Source of the DNA: a virus
Lineage: Duplodnaviria; Heunggongvirae; Uroviricota; Caudoviricetes
Reading direction: 5' to 3' (one strand)
DNA: 10,773 bases
IMG/VR virus record: IMGVR_UViG_2681813269_000008
A model generated the notes under the pieces. The model saw nothing but the letters and a program-made list of their open reading frames with translations. It did no database searches and was not told the DNA's origin. Shown here in pieces: positions 1-10,642 of this stretch (the first letter of the stretch is position 1; each line of letters begins with the position of its first letter). A program made the position numbers and the translations under genes.

Positions 1-253
1 GTCTGGCGACAGTGGCAAGGTCTTTATTCAGGAGGGCTTTGCATTCTGCTTCGGTATACGTTTTACCGAGCATGATGTCTTTTCCGGTGTGTCCGTGACA
101 TACAGTCCATACACCAATGATATCTTTGTATGGTATGTAGCTGACACCTTCCAGACCATCGTTACCACCTGGGCCAGTGATTAACACAGATGCTATAGCA
201 ACAGCCCCACCACCAATAGCAGCTGCAACAGCCTTGCGTAATGATGGCGACAT
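1..253 (-). CDS. SAR endolysin (phage 21 R-like lysozyme), N-terminal part only; gene continues beyond the window start
   Basis: Minus-strand translation from the ATG at 253-251 is open to position 1: [84 protein letters not shown]. The Gly/Ala-rich weakly hydrophobic N-terminus is a typical signal-anchor-release domain, followed by a lysozyme-like segment. The start overlaps the holin stop (TAATG). Not in the supplied track because it is truncated. Confidence 0.8.
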
Positions 254-468
254 TATTCACCTCTCGCAGCCTTACGCTTGTCTTCTCTTATTTTGAAATA
301 CAGATTTGTCAGATAAGTCAGAAGCCCCAGAAGCAGACTTCCCAGCACACCAATCGCAGCCCACTGTGATGGACTGACCTGATCCAACCACTGCAAAAAC
401 CAGTAGCCGGCACTGCCGGCGGAGGTGCCGTAGGCAATGCCTGTTGATATTTTTTCCATCTGATACAT
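253..468 (-). CDS. Class II pinholin (phage 21 S21-like) with dual-start motif
   Basis: 71-aa [74 protein letters not shown]. It has two predicted transmembrane segments and a charged C-terminus, and closely resembles S21 as I recall it. Met1 and Met4 give the antiholin/holin dual start. It sits directly upstream of the SAR endolysin. Confidence 0.85.
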
Positions 469-502
469 ATCCCGCCCCCCGACAGACCTGTGCTATCGGA
501 AA

Positions 503-534
503 GAAAAAAGGCCATCAGCAAAACTCTGATGGCC
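503..534 (-). terminator. Predicted rho-independent terminator (minus strand) just upstream of the holin gene
   Basis: Perfect 9-bp stem GGCCATCAG (510-518) / CTGATGGCC (526-534) with a 7-nt loop. On the minus strand the hairpin is followed by a U-run (complement of GAAAAAA at 503-509). Confidence 0.5.
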
Positions 535-579
535 TGAATCACCTTTACCAATATTGTATGAAAAAACACGCACGACTAA

Positions 580-608
580 TTGACAATAATTTTCATTTCC
601 ATTAAAAA
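580..608 (+). promoter_or_regulatory. Candidate sigma70 promoter on the plus strand (TTGACA, 17-nt spacer, TAAAAA)
   Basis: Consensus -35 TTGACA at 580-585, a 17-nt spacer, and a weak -10 TAAAAA at 603-608 in an AT-rich context. It points toward the terminator hairpin at 644-710. Prediction only. Confidence 0.25.
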
Positions 609-643
609 AGATCGCGTAGCATTCTTAATTCATGAGGAACTTT

Positions 644-710
644 ACCCGCCAGCAATCTGAGTAGCGAAAGCTGTTCATCCCCAATGTTTTTGCTGGCGGG
701 TCCTTTTTTC
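644..710 (+). terminator. Long-stem hairpin plus T-run; intrinsic terminator and/or 3' end of a candidate small RNA (plus strand)
   Basis: Perfect 11-bp arms CCCGCCAGCAA (645-655) / TTGCTGGCGGG (690-700) enclose a 34-nt loop with a possible internal GAAA tetraloop stem, followed by TTTTTT (704-709). A second weaker hairpin and T-run lies at about 722-757. Confidence 0.45.
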
Positions 711-1148
711 TACGGTCCTCCTCCCCGGAGGGGGGCATTTCATTATTTTTCTAATCGTTACTGGTGAGAAGGCGGAAGAAAAAGCCAGTTCTTCGCCCCT
801 AAATAACAGCATGATTCCAGTCCATGCAAAATCTGATTTCCAGCTCACACATACCGAGCGCTGTACAAAAAACCGCCAGCCAAGGCAGTTAAGAGTGTGT
901 TCCCGGGGTTTGCTTAGAATATTTTGTAAGTTGTCCGAAGAGATATTTACAACACCAGAATGATGAATCATCAGTCCCCTGCCAGAGGTTCACTACGTAA
1001 CCTGACCGACAATGCACCATTCTGGTGCTGAAAAAAGAGCACTGGAACTGCAACAAAACAACATCACAGAACAGGAGATGGTAAGGAGTCAGACATTCCC
1101 ACACAATATTGTGTCAGTGCAAATAACAACCTTCGTCTCAAATCTCGC

Positions 1149-1223
<75 letters not shown>

Positions 1224-1226
1224 ATA

Positions 1227-1302
<76 letters not shown>

Positions 1303-1304
1303 GC

Positions 1305-1381
1305 TGGCCCACCACCGAGGACTCGAACCTCGCACCGTCAACTTAGAAGGTTGATGCTCTATCCGGATGAGCTAGTGGTGG
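1305..1381 (-). tRNA. tRNA-Arg (anticodon TCT)
   Basis: Minus-strand CCACCACTAGCTCATCCGGATAGAGCATCAACCTTCTAAGTTGACGGTGCGAGGTTCGAGTCCTCGGTGGTGGGCCA. Acceptor stem CCACCAC/GTGGTGG, anticodon stem TCAAC/GTTGA, loop CTTCTAA, encoded CCA. Confidence 0.88.
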
Positions 1382-1382
1382 T

Positions 1383-1459
1383 TGGTGGCCCTTGCTGGAC
1401 TTGAACCAGCGACCTGGCGATTATGAGTCGCTCGCTCTGACCAACTGAGCTAAAGGGCC
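1383..1459 (-). tRNA. tRNA with CAT anticodon, most likely tRNA-Ile2 (lysidine-modified), ileX/ileZ-like
   Basis: Minus-strand GGCCCTTTAGCTCAGTTGGTCAGAGCGAGCGACTCATAATCGCCAGGTCGCTGGTTCAAGTCCAGCAAGGGCCACCA. Anticodon loop CTCATAA. The body resembles E. coli tRNA-Ile2 rather than initiator or elongator tRNA-Met, as I recall them. Confidence 0.85.
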
Positions 1460-1547
1460 GGAGGCAGAATAATAACCATATGTCATCACATCTGCAAACT
1501 CATCTGACCACCAGCACGTTTAACGTCCTGTGCCGTTTTTCAGGTAT

Positions 1548-1573
1548 AAAAAAACCCGCTCATCGGCGGGTTT
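1548..1573 (-). terminator. Predicted rho-independent terminator (minus strand) downstream of the ORF6N-like gene
   Basis: Stem CCCGC (1555-1559) / GCGGG (1566-1570) with a 6-nt loop. On the minus strand it is followed by a 7-U run (complement of the A-run at 1548-1554). Confidence 0.6.
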
Positions 1574-1648
1574 AAGCTGTGTGGCGTAGTAACCACTCTT
1601 AACAGGATATTCAACTTTTTACGATCGTAAAGTTTTCGGAAAAAATTT

Positions 1649-2218
1649 TTAAAACCGCATCAACCGCTCCACCAGTTGCTCTTTACGGGCAACGATCCAC
1701 CCGTGTTGCTCCAGATAAAATTTAAACCGTTCCAGAGTACATACCATCGCATCGGCGGGTACCTTTTCCGTGAACTCAACCTGACCGTGTTTATCGAAGT
1801 GGCTCAGTAATGCGCATCCATCATTTTCGATAGATGTGTTTTGTGCCGCTGGTGGCTGTTTCTGGTTGAAATAACAGTCTTCCAGTTTTTCGAACACTTC
1901 CCACGCCTGATCGGTTTCGAGCATTTTGGCGTGACGGGCTGCGCCACGTTCTGTCCAGAGGATGAGGGAGCGAACGTTACGGGCAATTTTCACAGAAACT
2001 CTTAAAGAGTTTTCGTTCTTCAACTCTCGTAACGCATCACCTTCTATCAGGAAAAAATGTTTACCTTCTATAAACCGTTCTTTGTTTCGATTGAAATTGT
2101 TTGTCAAACGCTGGCGCTCTGTTCCGTACAAATCAGCCAGCAGCTCTGTTGTCATGACAGGAAGATGGTTATGCGTAAGTGACGGGAGTTTTTCAATAGA
2201 CGTGCGATTCATAGACAT
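1649..2218 (-). CDS. ORF6N/KilA-N-like phage DNA-binding (antirepressor-like) protein; start uncertain
   Basis: The open frame runs 1649-2410 (253 aa). The conserved region starts near MSMNRTSIEKLPSLTHNHLPVMTTELLADLYGTERQRLTNNFNRNKERFIEGKHFFLIEGDALRELK...WTERGAARHAKMLETDQAWEVFEKL, which resembles the ORF6N domain by recall. An AAAGGA Shine-Dalgarno sits before the ATG pair at 2218/2212. The 64-codon upstream extension has no protein-like character. Confidence 0.6.
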   Translation of the reverse strand: MSMNRTSIEKLPSLTHNHLPVMTTELLADLYGTERQRLTNNFNRNKERFIEGKHFFLIEGDALRELKNENSLRVSVKIARNVRSLILWTERGAARHAKMLETDQAWEVFEKLEDCYFNQKQPPAAQNTSIENDGCALLSHFDKHGQVEFTEKVPADAMVCTLERFKFYLEQHGWIVARKEQLVERLMRF

Positions 2219-2573
2219 GTCCTTTCGAATATTTTGATTTACCCCTTTTGAGAGGGTGACCGGGCGCTCAAAACCGTCGAAAGTCGGCGGGCGTATTTCC
2301 ATTGCTGGTATTGTATTAGCCGCACACCCGGTCATAAACCAAGAATTCTGGACACAAAAAAACCACATGGCTATCGGGTGTGGATACCGCTTTCGAGGTG
2401 TTTTGAGCACCGCGGGGAAATGTAAACTGCAAACCTGAAACTGTCAACACCGTCAGGTTCCAATCATCGGGTGGTGAGACGCACAGGGTTGGAACTACCG
2501 GGAAACCGACCGGCGAGCTTTTCAGCTCCCCCATGCGCCCCACCATAATTCAGATGTGCGCGTGCATACGACA

Positions 2574-2597
2574 ATAAAAAACACGCTCGCGGCGTGT
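2574..2597 (-). terminator. tR'-like intrinsic terminator downstream of the late promoter (minus strand)
   Basis: Minus-strand ACACGC-CGCGA-GCGTGT hairpin (6-bp stem) followed by TTTTTTAT. It lies about 55-80 nt downstream of the predicted PR' start, as in lambdoid late leaders. Confidence 0.55.
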
Positions 2598-2658
2598 GTC
2601 TGTCGCGGTCTCTATCCGGGGTTCCAATCCCGACGCCAGATTTTGCTGGCGCGTGAGG

Positions 2659-2688
2659 AATATAGCCCCGGACAATGTGTCTGGTCAA
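2659..2688 (-). promoter_or_regulatory. PR'-like late promoter immediately downstream of Q
   Basis: Minus-strand TTGACC (-35, plus 2683-2688), 18-nt spacer, TATATT (-10, plus 2659-2664). It begins 5 bp after the Q stop codon, the canonical lambdoid position for PR'. Confidence 0.55.
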
Positions 2689-2692
2689 GCAC

Positions 2693-3079
2693 CTACATAA
2701 TTCGTTCTACGTATCTGTCCATCTCCAGCCGGATATCAAGCATCATCAACATGCCATCAATAACCCCTTCCGCTTTCTGCAGGCGCTTGCCAATACAGGT
2801 ATCCGAACACCCATGTTTCCGTGCCAGACTCATAAAAGTCATTCCACCTACGTAATAATCCACCAGCAAATCGTGCAAATCCTGATTTTTCTTGTTCAAC
2901 CGGGCCATACAGCCACAAATTATCATTGCATCATCATCAGAACACTGAGGGCGTGATTTCACTTTCGACGGAATTAACCCTTTAAAACCAGCAGCGATCG
3001 ACGCCCAGGATACATCTTCATGAGTGTTTGCAGCCCAAGCCCCCCACCGTTCCATAACCTGCTGAATATCACGCGCCAT
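2693..3079 (-). CDS. Late antiterminator Q (phage antitermination Q family, QuuD/phage 82-like)
   Basis: [121 protein letters not shown] closely resembles QuuD-type Q proteins as I recall them. The track ORF extends to 3100, but the ATG at 3079 has a good AGGTGA Shine-Dalgarno and overlaps the rusA stop. Confidence 0.85.
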
Positions 3080-3440
3080 CGTTATCACCTGTGATTTCAT
3101 AAATCTTCACGCCCAGTCGCCCACCAGGAACGAGCTGACCGCGCACAATATTGATTTCATCAAACTGCTCGTCGTCTATGAGTAGTCCGGCATGCGTCAG
3201 CGCATCCAGTGGTGCTTTCAGGATATTGTCCAGGTCACGACGGCGCTTATCCGGTGGCTCTGCAATAATCTTTATCGCCAGCCTTCCGGACAGGTTTAAT
3301 TTCAGCCGCTGCTGGCGAACAATTAGCGTCACATCACGGCGATAACGCTCACCAACTTTTGATACAAAATATGTGCTGCCACGACGTCGCCAGTAAGTAT
3401 TCACCGTCGGCGGATAAGGTAAAATAAACTCATGGCGCAT
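3069..3440 (-). CDS. rusA: Holliday junction resolvase RusA
   Basis: 123 aa: [21 protein letters not shown]...[31 protein letters not shown]...[11 protein letters not shown]. This matches the RusA hallmark motifs (PPS/TxN, DxRRRDLDN, D/E acidic cluster). The start overlaps the upstream stop (TGATG). Confidence 0.9.
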
Positions 3441-3697
3441 CAGCGCAGCACCTCCTGCACCATTTTTTCAAACTTTCCAACTTTGGTTTCCAGCTCTGCC
3501 ACACAATCAACGAGCTCATCCACCGCTTTTTGTGCGCGATGTTTCGCCTGCATCAGTTCCCTGAGCGCTGGCACCATATCCCGACGAATGGCATCTTTTG
3601 TTACACCTGTTTTTTCCAGTTGTTCCGCCTGTCGCAACATTTCCTGCGCGTGTTTACGCAATTGTTCAGAGGTAAAAGTCATTGTCTGGTTGTTCAA
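3440..3697 (-). CDS. Small hypothetical phage protein, predicted coiled-coil, unknown function
   Basis: 85-codon frame between the helicase and rusA. The 5'-most start is TTG, overlapping the helicase stop; an internal ATG lies at 3682. Charged, heptad-like sequence (EQLRKHAQEMLRQAEQLEK...). No family recognised. Confidence 0.5.
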   Translation of the reverse strand: MNNQTMTFTSEQLRKHAQEMLRQAEQLEKTGVTKDAIRRDMVPALRELMQAKHRAQKAVDELVDCVAELETKVGKFEKMVQEVLR

Positions 3698-5085
3698 AAG
3701 AAACGCTCCATCTTACTGCTGTCGGTACGTGTATTGCTGTATCTGCGCGGCTGGGGCTGCCGCATTGGGGTGGAAAGAACCTGTGCGCTTTCCTGGTCCA
3801 CAGGCAGAAAATGTCCGTTATAAAAACGCCGGTAAATCGTCCCCAGAGAACCGTTACGTTGTTTCGTGATATTAATTTCTGCTATGCCTGTAGCCTGTGT
3901 ATCCGGGTTGTACACTTCATCCCTGTAAAGCATCAGAATGATGTCTGCATCCGCCTCTATTTCTCCGGAATTTTTCAGGTCTGAGTTCATGGGACGTTTA
4001 TTGGGTCTGGACTCCACACCGCGGGAGAGCTGGCTCAGCGCAATCAACGGAAAACCACCGGATTTTGCCAGGCCTTTAAGCCCCTTTGAGATTTCACCCA
4101 CGGCAAGGTCATGACGCCCCGTGGTTCGGGTTTTTATCAGCCCGAGATAATCAACCACCACCAGCGCCGTTTCCGGATGTTTAATCAGATGGTGTTTCGT
4201 TGTTGCGCATATCTCATCAATGGTCAGGTTCGCCTGGTCCACCATCCAGATATTGCGCCCGGTCATCCGCCCCACCCCTTGTGAGAAACGCGCCCAGTCT
4301 TCATCTTCAAAGTGAGCCACAGATTTCAGGCGTGATACTGGCATCCCTCCAGCCGCAGACACCATACGTTCACCAATCTGGATGTTCGCCATCTCCATGG
4401 TGAACAGAAGCACACCATGCCCCTGCTCAGTCACCTTGTCGATGATGTCCAGCGCAAGTTCGGTTTTCCCCATCGAAGGACGGGCGGCAATGAATACCAG
4501 GTCTCCGGGCTCCATACCGCCTGTTTTTGCGTCCAGTTCATCAATACCGGTCATCAACGTCCTGGATTTCTCCAGCCCCTGATTCCGGCATTCAACACGC
4601 TCAACCACTTCCGGAAGCACATCATCAATATGTACCGGCTGAATGACGCCCTTTCCTGTCGACAGTGTGACCATCATGTTCTGCGCATCCTTCAGGGCAT
4701 CTTCAGCTGCTTCACAGGTATGCGCATCACGTAATTTCTGCAGCGCCTCATTCAGTGTTTTTTCTGCATCGCGCAGTGCGGCATTGCGCCGCAACGCTGC
4801 AACATAGTGCTCCAGTGAAGACTTCACCCAGGTTTTACGCCCGGTATCAGTAATCACCGGGGCAAGTTCCGGCATCTCATTACACAACAGCACGGGGTCA
4901 ATCACTCCTGAAACACGGGCCTGTCTGCAGATGCCTGTGTAGATATCCCGATACGCTCGTACAGAAAAAATGTCCGCCGGTAGTGTGATCAGAATATCCA
5001 TCACTTCATGATCTGCCCCACGCAGAAAGAATGCGCCAATGACAGCGCCTTCCAGGTCATCATTACGCCAGACTGGTGTTGTCAT
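3694..5085 (-). CDS. Phage replicative DNA helicase, DnaB family
   Basis: DnaB N-terminal-like region ([13 protein letters not shown]...) and RecA-like C-terminal domain with Walker [10 protein letters not shown], Walker B VVVDYLGL and [20 protein letters not shown]. The ATG at 5085 has a GAGGTG Shine-Dalgarno 9 nt upstream. The track ORF reaching 5145 begins at a GTG inside IS-derived sequence and is an artefactual extension. Confidence 0.9.
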
Positions 5086-5140
5086 GCAGCCACACCTCTG
5101 ATACAAGAACGGTAGCTGGGCCAGTTGAACGACAACCAGT

Positions 5141-5255
5141 ATCACTTAACCCATTACTGGCTTGCTGCCGTAGATATTCCCGTGGCGAGCGATAACCCAG
5201 TGCACTATGCGGATGCCATTCGTTATAATGCTCGAACGCCTCTGCAAGGTTCTTT
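5141..5255 (-). mobile_element. IS2-like internal fragment (3' end of the transposase gene) lacking the terminal inverted repeat
   Basis: The minus strand encodes ...[38 protein letters not shown], matching the C-terminus of the IS2 transposase as I recall it. The same sequence recurs at 10675-10773, where it is preceded by the 32-bp IS2-like terminus that is absent here. Confidence 0.6.
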
Positions 5256-5522
5256 AAAGCCGAAGCTGTCAGAACGGTTCTTGAAAATCAACTTTCGATC
5301 AGTGAAGGCGCTTCCCGATTATCTCTTCCTGAAGGCACTTTAGGACAATGGGTTACCGCCGCCAGAAAAGGGCTCGGTACTCCTGGTTCCCGCACGGTGG
5401 CTGAACTGGAATCTGAAATTCTGCAACTGCGTAAGGCGTTAAATGAAGCTCGCCTTGAGCGAGATATATTAAAAAAAGCAACAGCGTATTTTGCACAGGA
5501 GTCGCTGAAAAATACGCGTTAA
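5256..5522 (+). pseudogene. IS3-family orfA, N-terminally truncated (no start codon)
   Basis: Frame reads ...[89 protein letters not shown], a helix-turn-helix plus leucine-zipper OrfA. An in-frame TAA lies just upstream and there is no ATG. Confidence 0.7.
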
Positions 5523-5557
5523 TCGAACAATGGCGACAACAATTTCCCATTGAAGCG

Positions 5558-6376
5558 ATGTGTCAGGTATTTGGTGTATCCAGGAGCGGTTATTACAACT
5601 GGGTACAGCATGAACCCTCAGACAGAAAACAAAGTGATGAGCGGCTAAAACTGGAGATTAAGGTGGCACATATCCGCACTCGCGAAACATATGGAACCCG
5701 GCGGCTCCAGACGGAGCTGGCAGAGAATGGCATCATCGTTGGTCGTGACCGACTGGCACGTCTTCGTAAGGAGCTAAGGCTACGCTGTAAGCAGAAACGC
5801 AAGTTCAGAGCGACTACGAACTCGAACCACAATCTGCCAGTTGCGCCAAATCTGCTGAACCAGACGTTCGCTCCTACAGCACCAAATCAGGTCTGGGTGG
5901 CGGACCTGACGTATGTTGCCACACAGGAGGGATGGTTGTACCTCGCTGGCATCAAAGATGTTTATACGTGCGAAATTGTCGGCTACGCCATGGGAGAGCG
6001 CATGACAAAAGAGCTGACAGGTAAAGCCCTGTTTATGGCGCTCAGGAGCCAGCGCCCACCTGCCGGGCTAATCCACCACTCTGATCGAGGTTCACAGTAC
6101 TGCGCATACGATTACCGGGTCATACAGGAGCAGTCTGGTCTGAAAACATCAATGTCGCGTAAAGGTAACTGTTACGACAACGCTCCGATGGAAAGCTTCT
6201 GGGGAACGCTGAAAAATGAGAGCCTGAGCCACTATCGTTTTAATAACCGGGATGAAGCCATCTCAGTAATACGGGAATACATTGAGATTTTCTACAATCG
6301 TCAGCGTCGTCACTCTCGTCTGGGGAATATCTCCCCGGCAGCCTTCAGGGAAAAATATCATCAGATGGCTGCTTAA
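5558..6376 (+). CDS. IS3-family transposase OrfB (DDE integrase catalytic domain)
   Basis: 272 aa with the DDE triad context WVADLTY, HHSDRGSQY and CYDNAPMESFWGTLK. The frame is open from the slippery site at 5471, consistent with an OrfAB frameshift fusion. Because orfA is truncated, a functional fusion is unlikely. Confidence 0.85.
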   Translation: MCQVFGVSRSGYYNWVQHEPSDRKQSDERLKLEIKVAHIRTRETYGTRRLQTELAENGIIVGRDRLARLRKELRLRCKQKRKFRATTNSNHNLPVAPNLLNQTFAPTAPNQVWVADLTYVATQEGWLYLAGIKDVYTCEIVGYAMGERMTKELTGKALFMALRSQRPPAGLIHHSDRGSQYCAYDYRVIQEQSGLKTSMSRKGNCYDNAPMESFWGTLKNESLSHYRFNNRDEAISVIREYIEIFYNRQRRHSRLGNISPAAFREKYHQMAA

Positions 6377-6469
6377 AAAAAGAACAAATGGTAGTGTCCG
6401 CTATTGCCAGTACACCTCACACTCTATCCAACAAACCACCCACAGTTAATCGGAATAAAAGCAGAGTGC

Positions 6470-6595
6470 TTATGAATGATCGCACGCCCGAAGGTTAGTA
6501 TTTCTGCACAGCAATTTTGCAAAAAAAGGCGATCATTCATAACTTAAACGTCTTTCAGTCACTCCGGGATTTCCCATCATCGCAGACTGAAAGAC
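6470..6595. repeat. Two adjacent perfect inverted repeats (14-bp arms and 11-bp arms) in the copy-2 flank
   Basis: TTATGAATGATCGC (6470-6483) pairs with GCGATCATTCATAA (6529-6542) across a 45-nt spacer. GTCTTTCAGTC (6550-6560) pairs with GACTGAAAGAC (6585-6595) across a 24-nt spacer. The second ends 6 bp from the tRNA-Gly 3' end. Confidence 0.6.
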
Positions 6596-6601
6596 TCTGA
6601 C

Positions 6602-6676
<75 letters not shown>

Positions 6677-6679
6677 ATA

Positions 6680-6755
<76 letters not shown>

Positions 6756-6757
6756 GC

Positions 6758-6834
6758 TGGCCCACCACCGAGGACTCGAACCTCGCACCGTCAACTTAGA
6801 AGGTTGATGCTCTATCCGGATGAGCTAGTGGTGG
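6758..6834 (-). tRNA. tRNA-Arg (anticodon TCT), copy 2
   Basis: Identical to 1305-1381 (offset 5453). Confidence 0.88.
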
Positions 6835-6835
6835 T

Positions 6836-6912
6836 TGGTGGCCCTTGCTGGACTTGAACCAGCGACCTGGCGATTATGAGTCGCTCGCTCTGACCAACTG
6901 AGCTAAAGGGCC
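6836..6912 (-). tRNA. tRNA-Ile2-like (anticodon CAT), copy 2
   Basis: Identical to 1383-1459 (offset 5453). Confidence 0.85.
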
Positions 6913-7000
6913 GGAGGCAGAATAATAACCATATGTCATCACATCTGCAAACTCATCTGACCACCAGCACGTTTAACGTCCTGTGCCGTTTTTCAGGTAT

Positions 7001-7026
7001 AAAAAAACCCGCTCATCGGCGGGTTT
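7001..7026 (-). terminator. Predicted rho-independent terminator, copy 2
   Basis: Identical to 1548-1573 (offset 5453). Confidence 0.6.
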
Positions 7027-7101
7027 AAGCTGTGTGGCGTAGTAACCACTCTTAACAGGATATTCAACTTTTTACGATCGTAAAGTTTTCGGAAAAAATT
7101 T

Positions 7102-7671
7102 TTAAAACCGCATCAACCGCTCCACCAGTTGCTCTTTACGGGCAACGATCCACCCGTGTTGCTCCAGATAAAATTTAAACCGTTCCAGAGTACATACCAT
7201 CGCATCGGCGGGTACCTTTTCCGTGAACTCAACCTGACCGTGTTTATCGAAGTGGCTCAGTAATGCGCATCCATCATTTTCGATAGATGTGTTTTGTGCC
7301 GCTGGTGGCTGTTTCTGGTTGAAATAACAGTCTTCCAGTTTTTCGAACACTTCCCACGCCTGATCGGTTTCGAGCATTTTGGCGTGACGGGCTGCGCCAC
7401 GTTCTGTCCAGAGGATGAGGGAGCGAACGTTACGGGCAATTTTCACAGAAACTCTTAAAGAGTTTTCGTTCTTCAACTCTCGTAACGCATCACCTTCTAT
7501 CAGGAAAAAATGTTTACCTTCTATAAACCGTTCTTTGTTTCGATTGAAATTGTTTGTCAAACGCTGGCGCTCTGTTCCGTACAAATCAGCCAGCAGCTCT
7601 GTTGTCATGACAGGAAGATGGTTATGCGTAAGTGACGGGAGTTTTTCAATAGACGTGCGATTCATAGACAT
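7102..7671 (-). CDS. ORF6N/KilA-N-like phage DNA-binding (antirepressor-like) protein, copy 2
   Basis: Identical to 1649-2218; the track ORF 7102-7863 is the same extended frame. Confidence 0.6.
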   Translation of the reverse strand: MSMNRTSIEKLPSLTHNHLPVMTTELLADLYGTERQRLTNNFNRNKERFIEGKHFFLIEGDALRELKNENSLRVSVKIARNVRSLILWTERGAARHAKMLETDQAWEVFEKLEDCYFNQKQPPAAQNTSIENDGCALLSHFDKHGQVEFTEKVPADAMVCTLERFKFYLEQHGWIVARKEQLVERLMRF

Positions 7672-8026
7672 GTCCTTTCGAATATTTTGATTTACCCCTT
7701 TTGAGAGGGTGACCGGGCGCTCAAAACCGTCGAAAGTCGGCGGGCGTATTTCCATTGCTGGTATTGTATTAGCCGCACACCCGGTCATAAACCAAGAATT
7801 CTGGACACAAAAAAACCACATGGCTATCGGGTGTGGATACCGCTTTCGAGGTGTTTTGAGCACCGCGGGGAAATGTAAACTGCAAACCTGAAACTGTCAA
7901 CACCGTCAGGTTCCAATCATCGGGTGGTGAGACGCACAGGGTTGGAACTACCGGGAAACCGACCGGCGAGCTTTTCAGCTCCCCCATGCGCCCCACCATA
8001 ATTCAGATGTGCGCGTGCATACGACA

Positions 8027-8050
8027 ATAAAAAACACGCTCGCGGCGTGT
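8027..8050 (-). terminator. tR'-like intrinsic terminator, copy 2
   Basis: Identical to 2574-2597 (offset 5453). Confidence 0.55.
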
Positions 8051-8111
8051 GTCTGTCGCGGTCTCTATCCGGGGTTCCAATCCCGACGCCAGATTTTGCT
8101 GGCGCGTGAGG

Positions 8112-8141
8112 AATATAGCCCCGGACAATGTGTCTGGTCAA
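8112..8141 (-). promoter_or_regulatory. PR'-like late promoter, copy 2
   Basis: Identical to 2659-2688 (offset 5453). Confidence 0.55.
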
Positions 8142-8145
8142 GCAC

Positions 8146-8532
8146 CTACATAATTCGTTCTACGTATCTGTCCATCTCCAGCCGGATATCAAGCATCATC
8201 AACATGCCATCAATAACCCCTTCCGCTTTCTGCAGGCGCTTGCCAATACAGGTATCCGAACACCCATGTTTCCGTGCCAGACTCATAAAAGTCATTCCAC
8301 CTACGTAATAATCCACCAGCAAATCGTGCAAATCCTGATTTTTCTTGTTCAACCGGGCCATACAGCCACAAATTATCATTGCATCATCATCAGAACACTG
8401 AGGGCGTGATTTCACTTTCGACGGAATTAACCCTTTAAAACCAGCAGCGATCGACGCCCAGGATACATCTTCATGAGTGTTTGCAGCCCAAGCCCCCCAC
8501 CGTTCCATAACCTGCTGAATATCACGCGCCAT
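8146..8532 (-). CDS. Late antiterminator Q, copy 2
   Basis: Identical to 2693-3079; track ORF 8146-8553. Confidence 0.85.
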
Positions 8533-8893
8533 CGTTATCACCTGTGATTTCATAAATCTTCACGCCCAGTCGCCCACCAGGAACGAGCTGACCGCGCACA
8601 ATATTGATTTCATCAAACTGCTCGTCGTCTATGAGTAGTCCGGCATGCGTCAGCGCATCCAGTGGTGCTTTCAGGATATTGTCCAGGTCACGACGGCGCT
8701 TATCCGGTGGCTCTGCAATAATCTTTATCGCCAGCCTTCCGGACAGGTTTAATTTCAGCCGCTGCTGGCGAACAATTAGCGTCACATCACGGCGATAACG
8801 CTCACCAACTTTTGATACAAAATATGTGCTGCCACGACGTCGCCAGTAAGTATTCACCGTCGGCGGATAAGGTAAAATAAACTCATGGCGCAT
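8522..8893 (-). CDS. rusA: Holliday junction resolvase RusA, copy 2
   Basis: Identical to 3069-3440. Confidence 0.9.
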
Positions 8894-9150
8894 CAGCGCA
8901 GCACCTCCTGCACCATTTTTTCAAACTTTCCAACTTTGGTTTCCAGCTCTGCCACACAATCAACGAGCTCATCCACCGCTTTTTGTGCGCGATGTTTCGC
9001 CTGCATCAGTTCCCTGAGCGCTGGCACCATATCCCGACGAATGGCATCTTTTGTTACACCTGTTTTTTCCAGTTGTTCCGCCTGTCGCAACATTTCCTGC
9101 GCGTGTTTACGCAATTGTTCAGAGGTAAAAGTCATTGTCTGGTTGTTCAA
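8893..9150 (-). CDS. Small hypothetical coiled-coil phage protein, copy 2
   Basis: Identical to 3440-3697. Confidence 0.5.
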   Translation of the reverse strand: MNNQTMTFTSEQLRKHAQEMLRQAEQLEKTGVTKDAIRRDMVPALRELMQAKHRAQKAVDELVDCVAELETKVGKFEKMVQEVLR

Positions 9151-10538
9151 AAGAAACGCTCCATCTTACTGCTGTCGGTACGTGTATTGCTGTATCTGCG
9201 CGGCTGGGGCTGCCGCATTGGGGTGGAAAGAACCTGTGCGCTTTCCTGGTCCACAGGCAGAAAATGTCCGTTATAAAAACGCCGGTAAATCGTCCCCAGA
9301 GAACCGTTACGTTGTTTCGTGATATTAATTTCTGCTATGCCTGTAGCCTGTGTATCCGGGTTGTACACTTCATCCCTGTAAAGCATCAGAATGATGTCTG
9401 CATCCGCCTCTATTTCTCCGGAATTTTTCAGGTCTGAGTTCATGGGACGTTTATTGGGTCTGGACTCCACACCGCGGGAGAGCTGGCTCAGCGCAATCAA
9501 CGGAAAACCACCGGATTTTGCCAGGCCTTTAAGCCCCTTTGAGATTTCACCCACGGCAAGGTCATGACGCCCCGTGGTTCGGGTTTTTATCAGCCCGAGA
9601 TAATCAACCACCACCAGCGCCGTTTCCGGATGTTTAATCAGATGGTGTTTCGTTGTTGCGCATATCTCATCAATGGTCAGGTTCGCCTGGTCCACCATCC
9701 AGATATTGCGCCCGGTCATCCGCCCCACCCCTTGTGAGAAACGCGCCCAGTCTTCATCTTCAAAGTGAGCCACAGATTTCAGGCGTGATACTGGCATCCC
9801 TCCAGCCGCAGACACCATACGTTCACCAATCTGGATGTTCGCCATCTCCATGGTGAACAGAAGCACACCATGCCCCTGCTCAGTCACCTTGTCGATGATG
9901 TCCAGCGCAAGTTCGGTTTTCCCCATCGAAGGACGGGCGGCAATGAATACCAGGTCTCCGGGCTCCATACCGCCTGTTTTTGCGTCCAGTTCATCAATAC
10001 CGGTCATCAACGTCCTGGATTTCTCCAGCCCCTGATTCCGGCATTCAACACGCTCAACCACTTCCGGAAGCACATCATCAATATGTACCGGCTGAATGAC
10101 GCCCTTTCCTGTCGACAGTGTGACCATCATGTTCTGCGCATCCTTCAGGGCATCTTCAGCTGCTTCACAGGTATGCGCATCACGTAATTTCTGCAGCGCC
10201 TCATTCAGTGTTTTTTCTGCATCGCGCAGTGCGGCATTGCGCCGCAACGCTGCAACATAGTGCTCCAGTGAAGACTTCACCCAGGTTTTACGCCCGGTAT
10301 CAGTAATCACCGGGGCAAGTTCCGGCATCTCATTACACAACAGCACGGGGTCAATCACTCCTGAAACACGGGCCTGTCTGCAGATGCCTGTGTAGATATC
10401 CCGATACGCTCGTACAGAAAAAATGTCCGCCGGTAGTGTGATCAGAATATCCATCACTTCATGATCTGCCCCACGCAGAAAGAATGCGCCAATGACAGCG
10501 CCTTCCAGGTCATCATTACGCCAGACTGGTGTTGTCAT
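9147..10538 (-). CDS. Phage replicative DNA helicase, DnaB family, copy 2
   Basis: Identical to 3694-5085. The 510-aa track ORF (to 10679) is an artefactual in-frame extension across 49 bp of flank and the IS2-like terminus. Confidence 0.9.
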   Translation of the reverse strand: MTTPVWRNDDLEGAVIGAFFLRGADHEVMDILITLPADIFSVRAYRDIYTGICRQARVSGVIDPVLLCNEMPELAPVITDTGRKTWVKSSLEHYVAALRRNAALRDAEKTLNEALQKLRDAHTCEAAEDALKDAQNMMVTLSTGKGVIQPVHIDDVLPEVVERVECRNQGLEKSRTLMTGIDELDAKTGGMEPGDLVFIAARPSMGKTELALDIIDKVTEQGHGVLLFTMEMANIQIGERMVSAAGGMPVSRLKSVAHFEDEDWARFSQGVGRMTGRNIWMVDQANLTIDEICATTKHHLIKHPETALVVVDYLGLIKTRTTGRHDLAVGEISKGLKGLAKSGGFPLIALSQLSRGVESRPNKRPMNSDLKNSGEIEADADIILMLYRDEVYNPDTQATGIAEINITKQRNGSLGTIYRRFYNGHFLPVDQESAQVLSTPMRQPQPRRYSNTRTDSSKMERFF

Positions 10539-10642
10539 GCAGCCACACCTCTGATACAAGAACGGTAGCTGGGCCAGTTGAACGACAACCAGTTGCGCCC
10601 CCCGTCTGTGATCCTGTCGGCAATGCGGGGGCTGATGAACGC
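10535..10642 (-). pseudogene. 3' remnant of the gene upstream of the helicase (probable replication initiator or helicase loader), cut by the IS2-like insertion
   Basis: Minus-strand frame ...[35 protein letters not shown] ends in a TGA that overlaps the helicase ATG (ATGA coupling). The frame is open right up to the IS2-like terminus at 10643. No family assignment is possible from 35 codons. Confidence 0.35.

Follow-up and report, generated by a model that had tools for sequence, protein, structure and literature searches.

A probable phage 21-type pinholin and SAR-endolysin gene pair in a lambdoid prophage remnant

Introduction

Lysis by phage 21 depends on a pinholin, S21, and a signal-anchor-release (SAR) endolysin, R21, and the pathway has been described in several studies (PMC9636201, PMC13056207, PMC9239132, bioRxiv 10.1101/2021.04.20.440580). 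Pinholins make heptameric holes of nanometre scale and are triggered upon depolarisation (PMC9636201, PMC9239132), and GxxxG-type motifs have also been mentioned (PMC13056207). The S21 gene gives a long form, S21-71, whose antiholin character has been ascribed to the extra basic residue of its N-terminal extension (PMC13056207, PMC9636201). The N-terminal charge has been shown to time the flipping of the first transmembrane domain (TMD1), and the three-residue extension by itself makes the cytoplasmic anchor longer (bioRxiv 10.1101/2021.04.20.440580). For the endolysin, the E-X8-D-X5-T motif and the criteria for a SAR domain have been defined, the definitive test of a SAR endolysin being its release from the membrane by the pinholin (PMC9239132). 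In the complete phage 21 genome (OL657228), the cassette is annotated as antiholin, class II holin, SAR endolysin, i-spanin and o-spanin, the holin gene carrying the labels 'antiholin (S21-71)' and 'holin class II, pinholin (S21-68)'.

Here we analysed one stretch of DNA, referred to as the window, which comprises 10,773 nucleotides of a Caudoviricetes record in IMG/VR (IMGVR_UViG_2681813269_000008). A first-pass annotation had placed a pinholin and SAR-endolysin pair with a dual-start holin in positions 1-468, and we compared this locus with phage 21, DLP12, the Stx phages, phage 434 and lambda.

Results

The S gene product belongs to the phage 21 holin family

The S gene occupies positions 253..468 on the minus strand (71 codons), and its product matched the Pfam family PF04971, 'Bacteriophage P21 holin S', with E=1.5e-35 (score 121 bits; family cut-off 26). 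It was also assigned to holin families in PHROG; in NCBIfam neither the holin nor the spanins matched a specific model. A tblastn search with the holin against GenBank phages returned 436 records, the phage 21 genome among them, and direct alignment of window S with S21-71 showed 65 of 71 residues to be identical (92%), the changes from S21 being K2Y, S3Q, D5E, V46L, F49L and R64K. The resemblance to the phage 21 pinholin pointed out by the first-pass annotation was thus borne out, and homology search did not move the protein out of the P21 holin S family into another class.

Topology was read from Kyte-Doolittle hydropathy, which showed two hydrophobic segments at residues 7-28 (TMD1) and 36-57 (TMD2). 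TMD1 is identical to that of S21, consists of Gly, Ala, Ser or Thr at 55% of its residues and has a mean hydropathy of 0.52, so that it appears to be a weakly hydrophobic, SAR-like (releasable) helix. TMD2 has a mean hydropathy of 1.47 and retains G40, S44 and G48, in an arrangement (G40xxxS44xxxG48) that we take to be the helix-packing motif of TMD2 in pinholins. These three residues are invariant across six aligned S alleles, and positions 46, 47 and 49 vary between alleles of isolated phages. The C-terminal tail carries a net charge of +3, and the form initiated at Met4 has three residues ahead of TMD1. By family membership, two transmembrane domains, a short N-terminus and a basic C-tail, the predicted protein is a class II holin (pinholin) of the S21 type.

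Two in-frame start codons precede TMD1, and the extension between them is uncharged

In-frame ATG codons are present at S codons 1 and 4, the second of which (459..457) would yield a form of 68 amino acids. A Shine-Dalgarno (SD)-like G-run (GGGGGGCGGG; 471..480, minus strand) lies 3-12 nt upstream of the first ATG; the best duplex with the anti-SD sequence (-9.4 kcal/mol) falls at -13..-6 from this ATG, the same position as that of the annotated GGAGG in phage 21. Since Met1 and Met4 are both present and the SD is placed as in phage 21, initiation at both codons is plausible, and the long product is probably made. However, the N-terminal extension of window S is Met-Tyr-Gln in place of the Met-Lys-Ser of S21-71, and the net charge over residues 1-6 is 0 in both forms of window S, compared to +1 (long) and 0 (short) for S21. 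The positively charged extension that marks an antiholin of the S21-71 type is therefore absent, and without this additional Lys it is doubtful that the long form works as an antiholin. In essence, the dual start proposed from the sequence MYQM stands as a sequence feature, with Met1 and Met4 in frame behind a phage 21-like SD, but the basic residue of the antiholin is missing and we do not class the long form among antiholins.

Among the 78 closest holin relatives in IMG/VR, the N-terminus is MKSMDK in 67 and MYQMEK in 11; MYQMEK is also found in S of Stx1 phage AU6. In phage 434 (locus L104, 1453-1680, minus strand), ATA replaces Met1 (…IHQMEK…) and the curated annotation lists a 68-codon pinholin only, with no antiholin, making this a natural single-start allele with the same N-terminal type as window S. 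In L093, a prophage of E. coli, the body of the holin is that of window S but the N-terminus is MKSMD, the two proteins differing at residues 2, 3 and 5 only; this indicates that the first five codons of S recombine as a unit linked to the upstream spacer.

A start-selecting RNA hairpin over the SD and start region has been reported for lambda and phage 21. No conserved hairpin of this kind was detected over the SD/start region of S, where the minimum free energy folds were no better than those of shuffled sequences (z = -1.4 for the window and -0.9 for phage 21) and the two folds were not alike.

The R gene encodes an R21-type endolysin that is cut by the window edge

The stop codon of S (TAA, 255..253) and the start codon of the next open reading frame, R (ATG, 253..251), overlap by exactly one base (TAATG, minus strand), as in phage 21 and as the first-pass annotation had stated. 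R lies at 2..253 on the minus strand and is open to base 2 of the window, so that only its 5' half, 84 of 165 codons, is inside. The description of positions 1-468 as a holin and lysozyme pair is therefore right in that both genes are present, with two corrections: they lie on the minus strand, and the second half of the endolysin falls outside the window. The 84-residue fragment matched PF00959 in Pfam (E=2e-13), and in NCBIfam only below-threshold matches to lysozyme families were obtained. The full 165-codon gene is present in loci of assembled genomes that are 100% identical to window 1-5140 (L003, L004, L007 and L010), and the full-length protein was taken from L003, which is 100% identical to the window flank. 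This protein gave full-length matches to the PDB entries 4ZPU (DLP12 RrrD; E=1.6e-109) and 3HDE/3HDF (lysozyme; E=1.2e-108). Its identity to R21, which carries the label 'SAR endolysin glycosyl hydrolase' in phage 21, is 96%, and the similarity to DLP12 RrrD is slightly greater; the substitutions from R21 (P2S, I18V, S29G, V46I, K68E, M98T and I159V) are conservative.

Hydropathy and composition place the SAR domain at residues 8-27 (173..232, minus strand), where Gly, Ala, Ser and Thr make up 65% of residues, the mean Kyte-Doolittle value is 1.97 and R6-K7 precede the segment. This agrees with the Gly/Ala-rich SAR N-terminus that had been noted for the lysozyme. The domain has one change relative to R21 (V18 for I18) and contains no Cys. 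A SAR domain without Cys indicates refolding control of the R21 type, as opposed to the disulfide isomerisation of P1 Lyz. The catalytic triad E35-X8-D44-X5-T50 is present within the window (104..151, minus strand; E35 at 151..149, D44 at 124..122 and T50 at 106..104) and is invariant with respect to R21. R is thus predicted to be a GH24 lysozyme with an N-terminal SAR anchor of the R21 type.

Spanin genes follow R in identical loci, and the holin is found with other lysozymes elsewhere

In the loci that are 100% identical to window 1-5140, R is followed, left of the window, by an intact overlapping Rz gene with embedded Rz1. Rz has 154 aa, is 88% identical to the phage 21 i-spanin and matches the PHROG 'Rz-like spanin' (E=8.5e-81); Rz1 has 60 aa, is 92% identical to its phage 21 counterpart and carries the lipobox VVGC. 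The order S-R-Rz is kept in 20/20 related loci inspected. Because the identical relatives have R, Rz and Rz1 intact, the same is expected of the present genome. In E. coli RefSeq entries the cassette is annotated as 'class II holin family protein', 'lysozyme RrrD' and 'lysis protein'; it is an already known cassette of the phage 21/DLP12 type.

Other genomes carry the same or nearly the same 71-aa holin followed by a DUF1327/hypothetical gene and a 177-aa lysozyme (L002 and L005, 10001-11606; L093, 4443-5890), and no overlapping 165-aa R21-type endolysin comes after the holin in these loci. The occurrence of the same holin with a different downstream lysozyme indicates that holin and endolysin recombine independently.

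The region upstream of S resembles an ordinary lambdoid late region

On the minus strand, S and R are preceded, in this order, by a dnaB-like helicase gene, an 85-aa open reading frame, RusA, Q, a promoter-like site, Rfam elements, an ORF6N antirepressor gene, four tRNAs and a spacer, a layout that reads as that of an ordinary lambdoid late region. The antiterminator gene Q (2693..3100, minus strand; PF06530, E=2.7e-52) is followed by a promoter-like site at 2688..2659 (minus strand; TTGACC-18-TATATT, 10/12 matches). Because its position parallels phage 21, this site is presumed to be the late promoter pR' driving S-R.

Rfam matches above the gathering score were seen between Q and the ORF6N gene in both copies of a duplicated module (2250-2665 and 7703-8118, minus strand), those of copy 1 being isrK (2576-2652), c4-a1b1 (2613-2665), C4 antisense RNA (2467-2550) and sRNA-Xcc1 (2250-2333), all on the minus strand. 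By its arrangement the cluster looks like an antisense-controlled antirepressor module, similar to P1 immI or Gifsy-1 isrK-anrP, inside the late operon. isrK runs from directly behind the promoter-like site to a terminator-like hairpin (2597-2581), and since it is bounded by these two elements it may be a short pR' leader transcript.

The tRNA array (1149..1459, minus strand; ARAGORN and Rfam) has the anticodons CAT, TCT, TGT and TCC and separates the Q module from S, a placement shared with other lambdoid late regions. ARAGORN called the CAT tRNA Met, but RefSeq lists it as tRNA-Ile in an E. coli prophage of 99% identity. The tRNAs are followed by a 680-bp spacer (469-1148, minus strand) that leads up to S and in which no open reading frame was found among those tested. 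A terminator scan located an intrinsic-terminator-like hairpin ~30 nt upstream of S (499..535, minus strand), with a 10-bp stem and a T-run, a fold of -18.5 kcal/mol and z = -2.9; in phage 434 a terminator is annotated at the corresponding position. The terminator-like hairpins of the spacer comprise this one (535-509) and others at 890-871 and 827-809. A spacer of this 680-bp type goes together with an MYQM N-terminus in S, and MKSM-type prophages have a spacer of ~290 bp.

The late module is duplicated, and only copy 1 leads into the lysis genes

The DnaB-RusA-Q-antirepressor-tRNA module is present as a direct duplication, positions 1148-5140 (copy 1) and 6601-10593 (copy 2, minus strand) being 100% identical over 3993 bp. 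The tRNA array is doubled with it (1149-1459 and 6602-6912, minus strand), which gives eight prophage tRNA genes in 10.8 kb. In agreement with the earlier statement that the second of two copies has no lysis genes, only copy 1 leads into S and R; leftward of copy 2, 181 bp past its tRNA-Gly are followed by a truncated IS600 that cuts the copy. Any Q-modified transcription from copy 2 would arrive at S only by way of the IS and copy 1.

The junction between the copies (5140..6600, 1460 bp) is made of three pieces. A 116-bp IS2 end fragment (5140-5255) is joined to dnaB, with an 80-bp deletion at the join relative to reference loci; next come an IS600 without its first ~97 bp (5253-6419; orfB at 5558-6376 on the plus strand) and a 181-bp spacer (6420-6600) that elsewhere joins tRNA-Gly to an MKSM-type S gene. 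The break in this spacer falls about 110 bp short of the expected start of the MKSM-type S. None of the three novel junctions occurred in 111 fetched loci, and an exact scan of genome contigs gave 0 matches to the IS600/181-bp junction. Exact matches to three proteins (the holin, DnaB and the IS600 orfA product truncated to 41 aa) all came from loci with a single copy or from unrelated IS600 sites. As the duplication is found in none of 20 related loci, it represents either a strain-specific rearrangement or an assembly artefact.

The related loci are IS-bounded prophage remnants

In the 20 related loci the element spans about 10 kb, with IS2 directly upstream of dnaB and IS elements after a truncated portal gene, and no repressor, N, immunity, head or tail genes were found in any of them. 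In one locus (L008) IS600 lies within the ORF6N gene and an IS4-type element breaks the RusA/Q region, and in another (L009) IS600 lies within dnaB. IS activity is eroding the remnant, independently in different strains.

Discussion

Overall, these results support the reading, to which we assign a probability of about 0.9, that the lysis cassette of a lambdoid prophage remnant begins in window 1-468 (minus strand), as a natural S21/R21 allele with a lysis pathway of the phage 21 type. By homology to phage 21, the steps would most likely be as follows. A Q-dependent late promoter ~2.2 kb upstream would presumably drive S-R, reading through the tRNA array and several terminators. R would be exported by Sec and tethered inactive to the inner membrane by its SAR helix, while S would build up in the inner membrane as inactive dimers. 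At a set time TMD1 of S would exit the bilayer and TMD2 would assemble into small heptameric pinholes, by which the membrane would be depolarised and the proton-motive force would collapse. Depolarisation would then release the SAR endolysin, which would refold to its active form and degrade the murein, and the Rz/Rz1 spanins, encoded just outside the window, would finally disrupt the outer membrane. As the MYQ extension carries no positive charge, the phage 21 model may hold here without its antiholin step.

The first-pass annotation had called copy 1 potentially lysis-competent, which seems fair for the genes themselves, as S, R, Rz and Rz1 are intact in the loci identical to the flank, but the element that holds them is an IS-bounded remnant. 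The chances appear evenly balanced that the cassette persists as a silent relic or, in the manner of DLP12 essD-rrrD-rzpD, as a domesticated module, with intact genes in a defective prophage that has lost its lytic programme, so that competence is nominal only. The ~10-kb IS-bounded form lacking repressor, N, head and tail genes in all 20 related loci, the insertions of IS600 or IS4-type elements in Q, ORF6N or dnaB of some strains and the IS-associated rearrangement in the window itself are all consistent with such decay, and Q in the remnant may never be expressed. Against it, S, R, Rz and Rz1 are full length and 88-96% identical to phage 21, and both copies retain an intact Q with the promoter-like site behind it; with these elements in place, forced expression of Q would plausibly still cause lysis. 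A canonical system of the lambda type, with a class I holin making large holes and a cytoplasmic endolysin, was rejected and has practically no chance of being right. It shares only the lambdoid gene order with the locus; the holin has two rather than three hydrophobic segments and matches the P21 holin family rather than the lambda S family, and the endolysin has an N-terminal hydrophobic anchor, which soluble endolysins lack.

Within the phage 21-type reading, the function of the longer S product has to be weighed separately. That window S is a true antiholin/holin pair as in phage 21, with the Met1 product inhibiting the Met4 product, strikes us as somewhat improbable. The positions of Met1 and Met4 and of the G-run at -13..-6 are those of phage 21, the MYQM form recurs in 11/78 close relatives and in Stx phages, and an extension of three residues is by itself enough to lengthen the cytoplasmic anchor (bioRxiv 10.1101/2021.04.20.440580). 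However, the literature credits the basic residue, and here Tyr-Gln leaves both forms at net charge 0; phage 434, of the same N-terminal type, has ATA for Met1 and is annotated as a pinholin only; and the folds over the start region gave no sign of a conserved RNA structure for start selection (z = -1.4, -0.9). We tentatively, and with less than even confidence, suggest that in the MYQM-class holins of the window and the Stx phages the uncharged Met1 product is not an antiholin and timing is set otherwise than by a charge-retarded TMD1, or that the first start codon persists as a neutral remainder, a view suggested by phage 434, which has lost Met1.

A cassette with 100% identity is present in many sequenced genomes, and the significance of the locus lies mainly in its correct annotation; the point of some value is the absence of Lys from the long form of S. 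Because a common MYQM allele lacks this residue, a dual start should not be equated automatically with an antiholin in annotation. The pair formed by window S and its L093 counterpart, which differ only at residues 2, 3 and 5, would let the 'extra positive charge' model be tested cleanly on natural alleles.

Compared to the known systems, the locus is closest to phage 21. Window S is like S21 (OL657228) in its 71 codons, the positions of Met1 and Met4, the position of the SD and the TAATG coupling to R; TMD1 is identical, and the loop, the glycine-zipper residues of TMD2 and the basic C-tail are conserved. In contrast, Lys2 of S21 is lost, and with it the extra positive charge of the antiholin form, and the spacer after the tRNAs is 680 bp in the window but about 120 bp, of different sequence, in phage 21. 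R shares with R21 (3HDE, 3HDF) and DLP12 RrrD (4ZPU) the length of 165 aa, a SAR domain without Cys and the E35/D44/T50 triad, and differs less from RrrD than from R21. These comparisons with S21, R21 and the PDB entries favour the pinholin/SAR-endolysin strategy over that of lambda S/R, as had been proposed at the outset. The S proteins of 933W/Stx phages and of phage 434 are of the same family (81-85% identity to window S), and the N-terminal type is common to window S, Stx1 phage AU6 (MYQMEK) and phage 434 (MEK), whereas TMD1 of the 933W/Stx and 434 alleles has diverged (ITTGVSYTTSAVGTG) from that of window S. The Stx phages further differ in having a SAR endolysin of 177 aa that is not start/stop coupled to S, unlike R of the window. 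Window S is a mosaic in which the first five codons are of the 933W type and the body is of the phage 21 type. With lambda S105/S107, window S shares the logic of a dual start and the position in a Q-dependent late operon, but lambda belongs to a holin class with three TMDs that makes holes of micron scale and acts with a cytoplasmic R endolysin, and its proteins are not homologous to those of the window.
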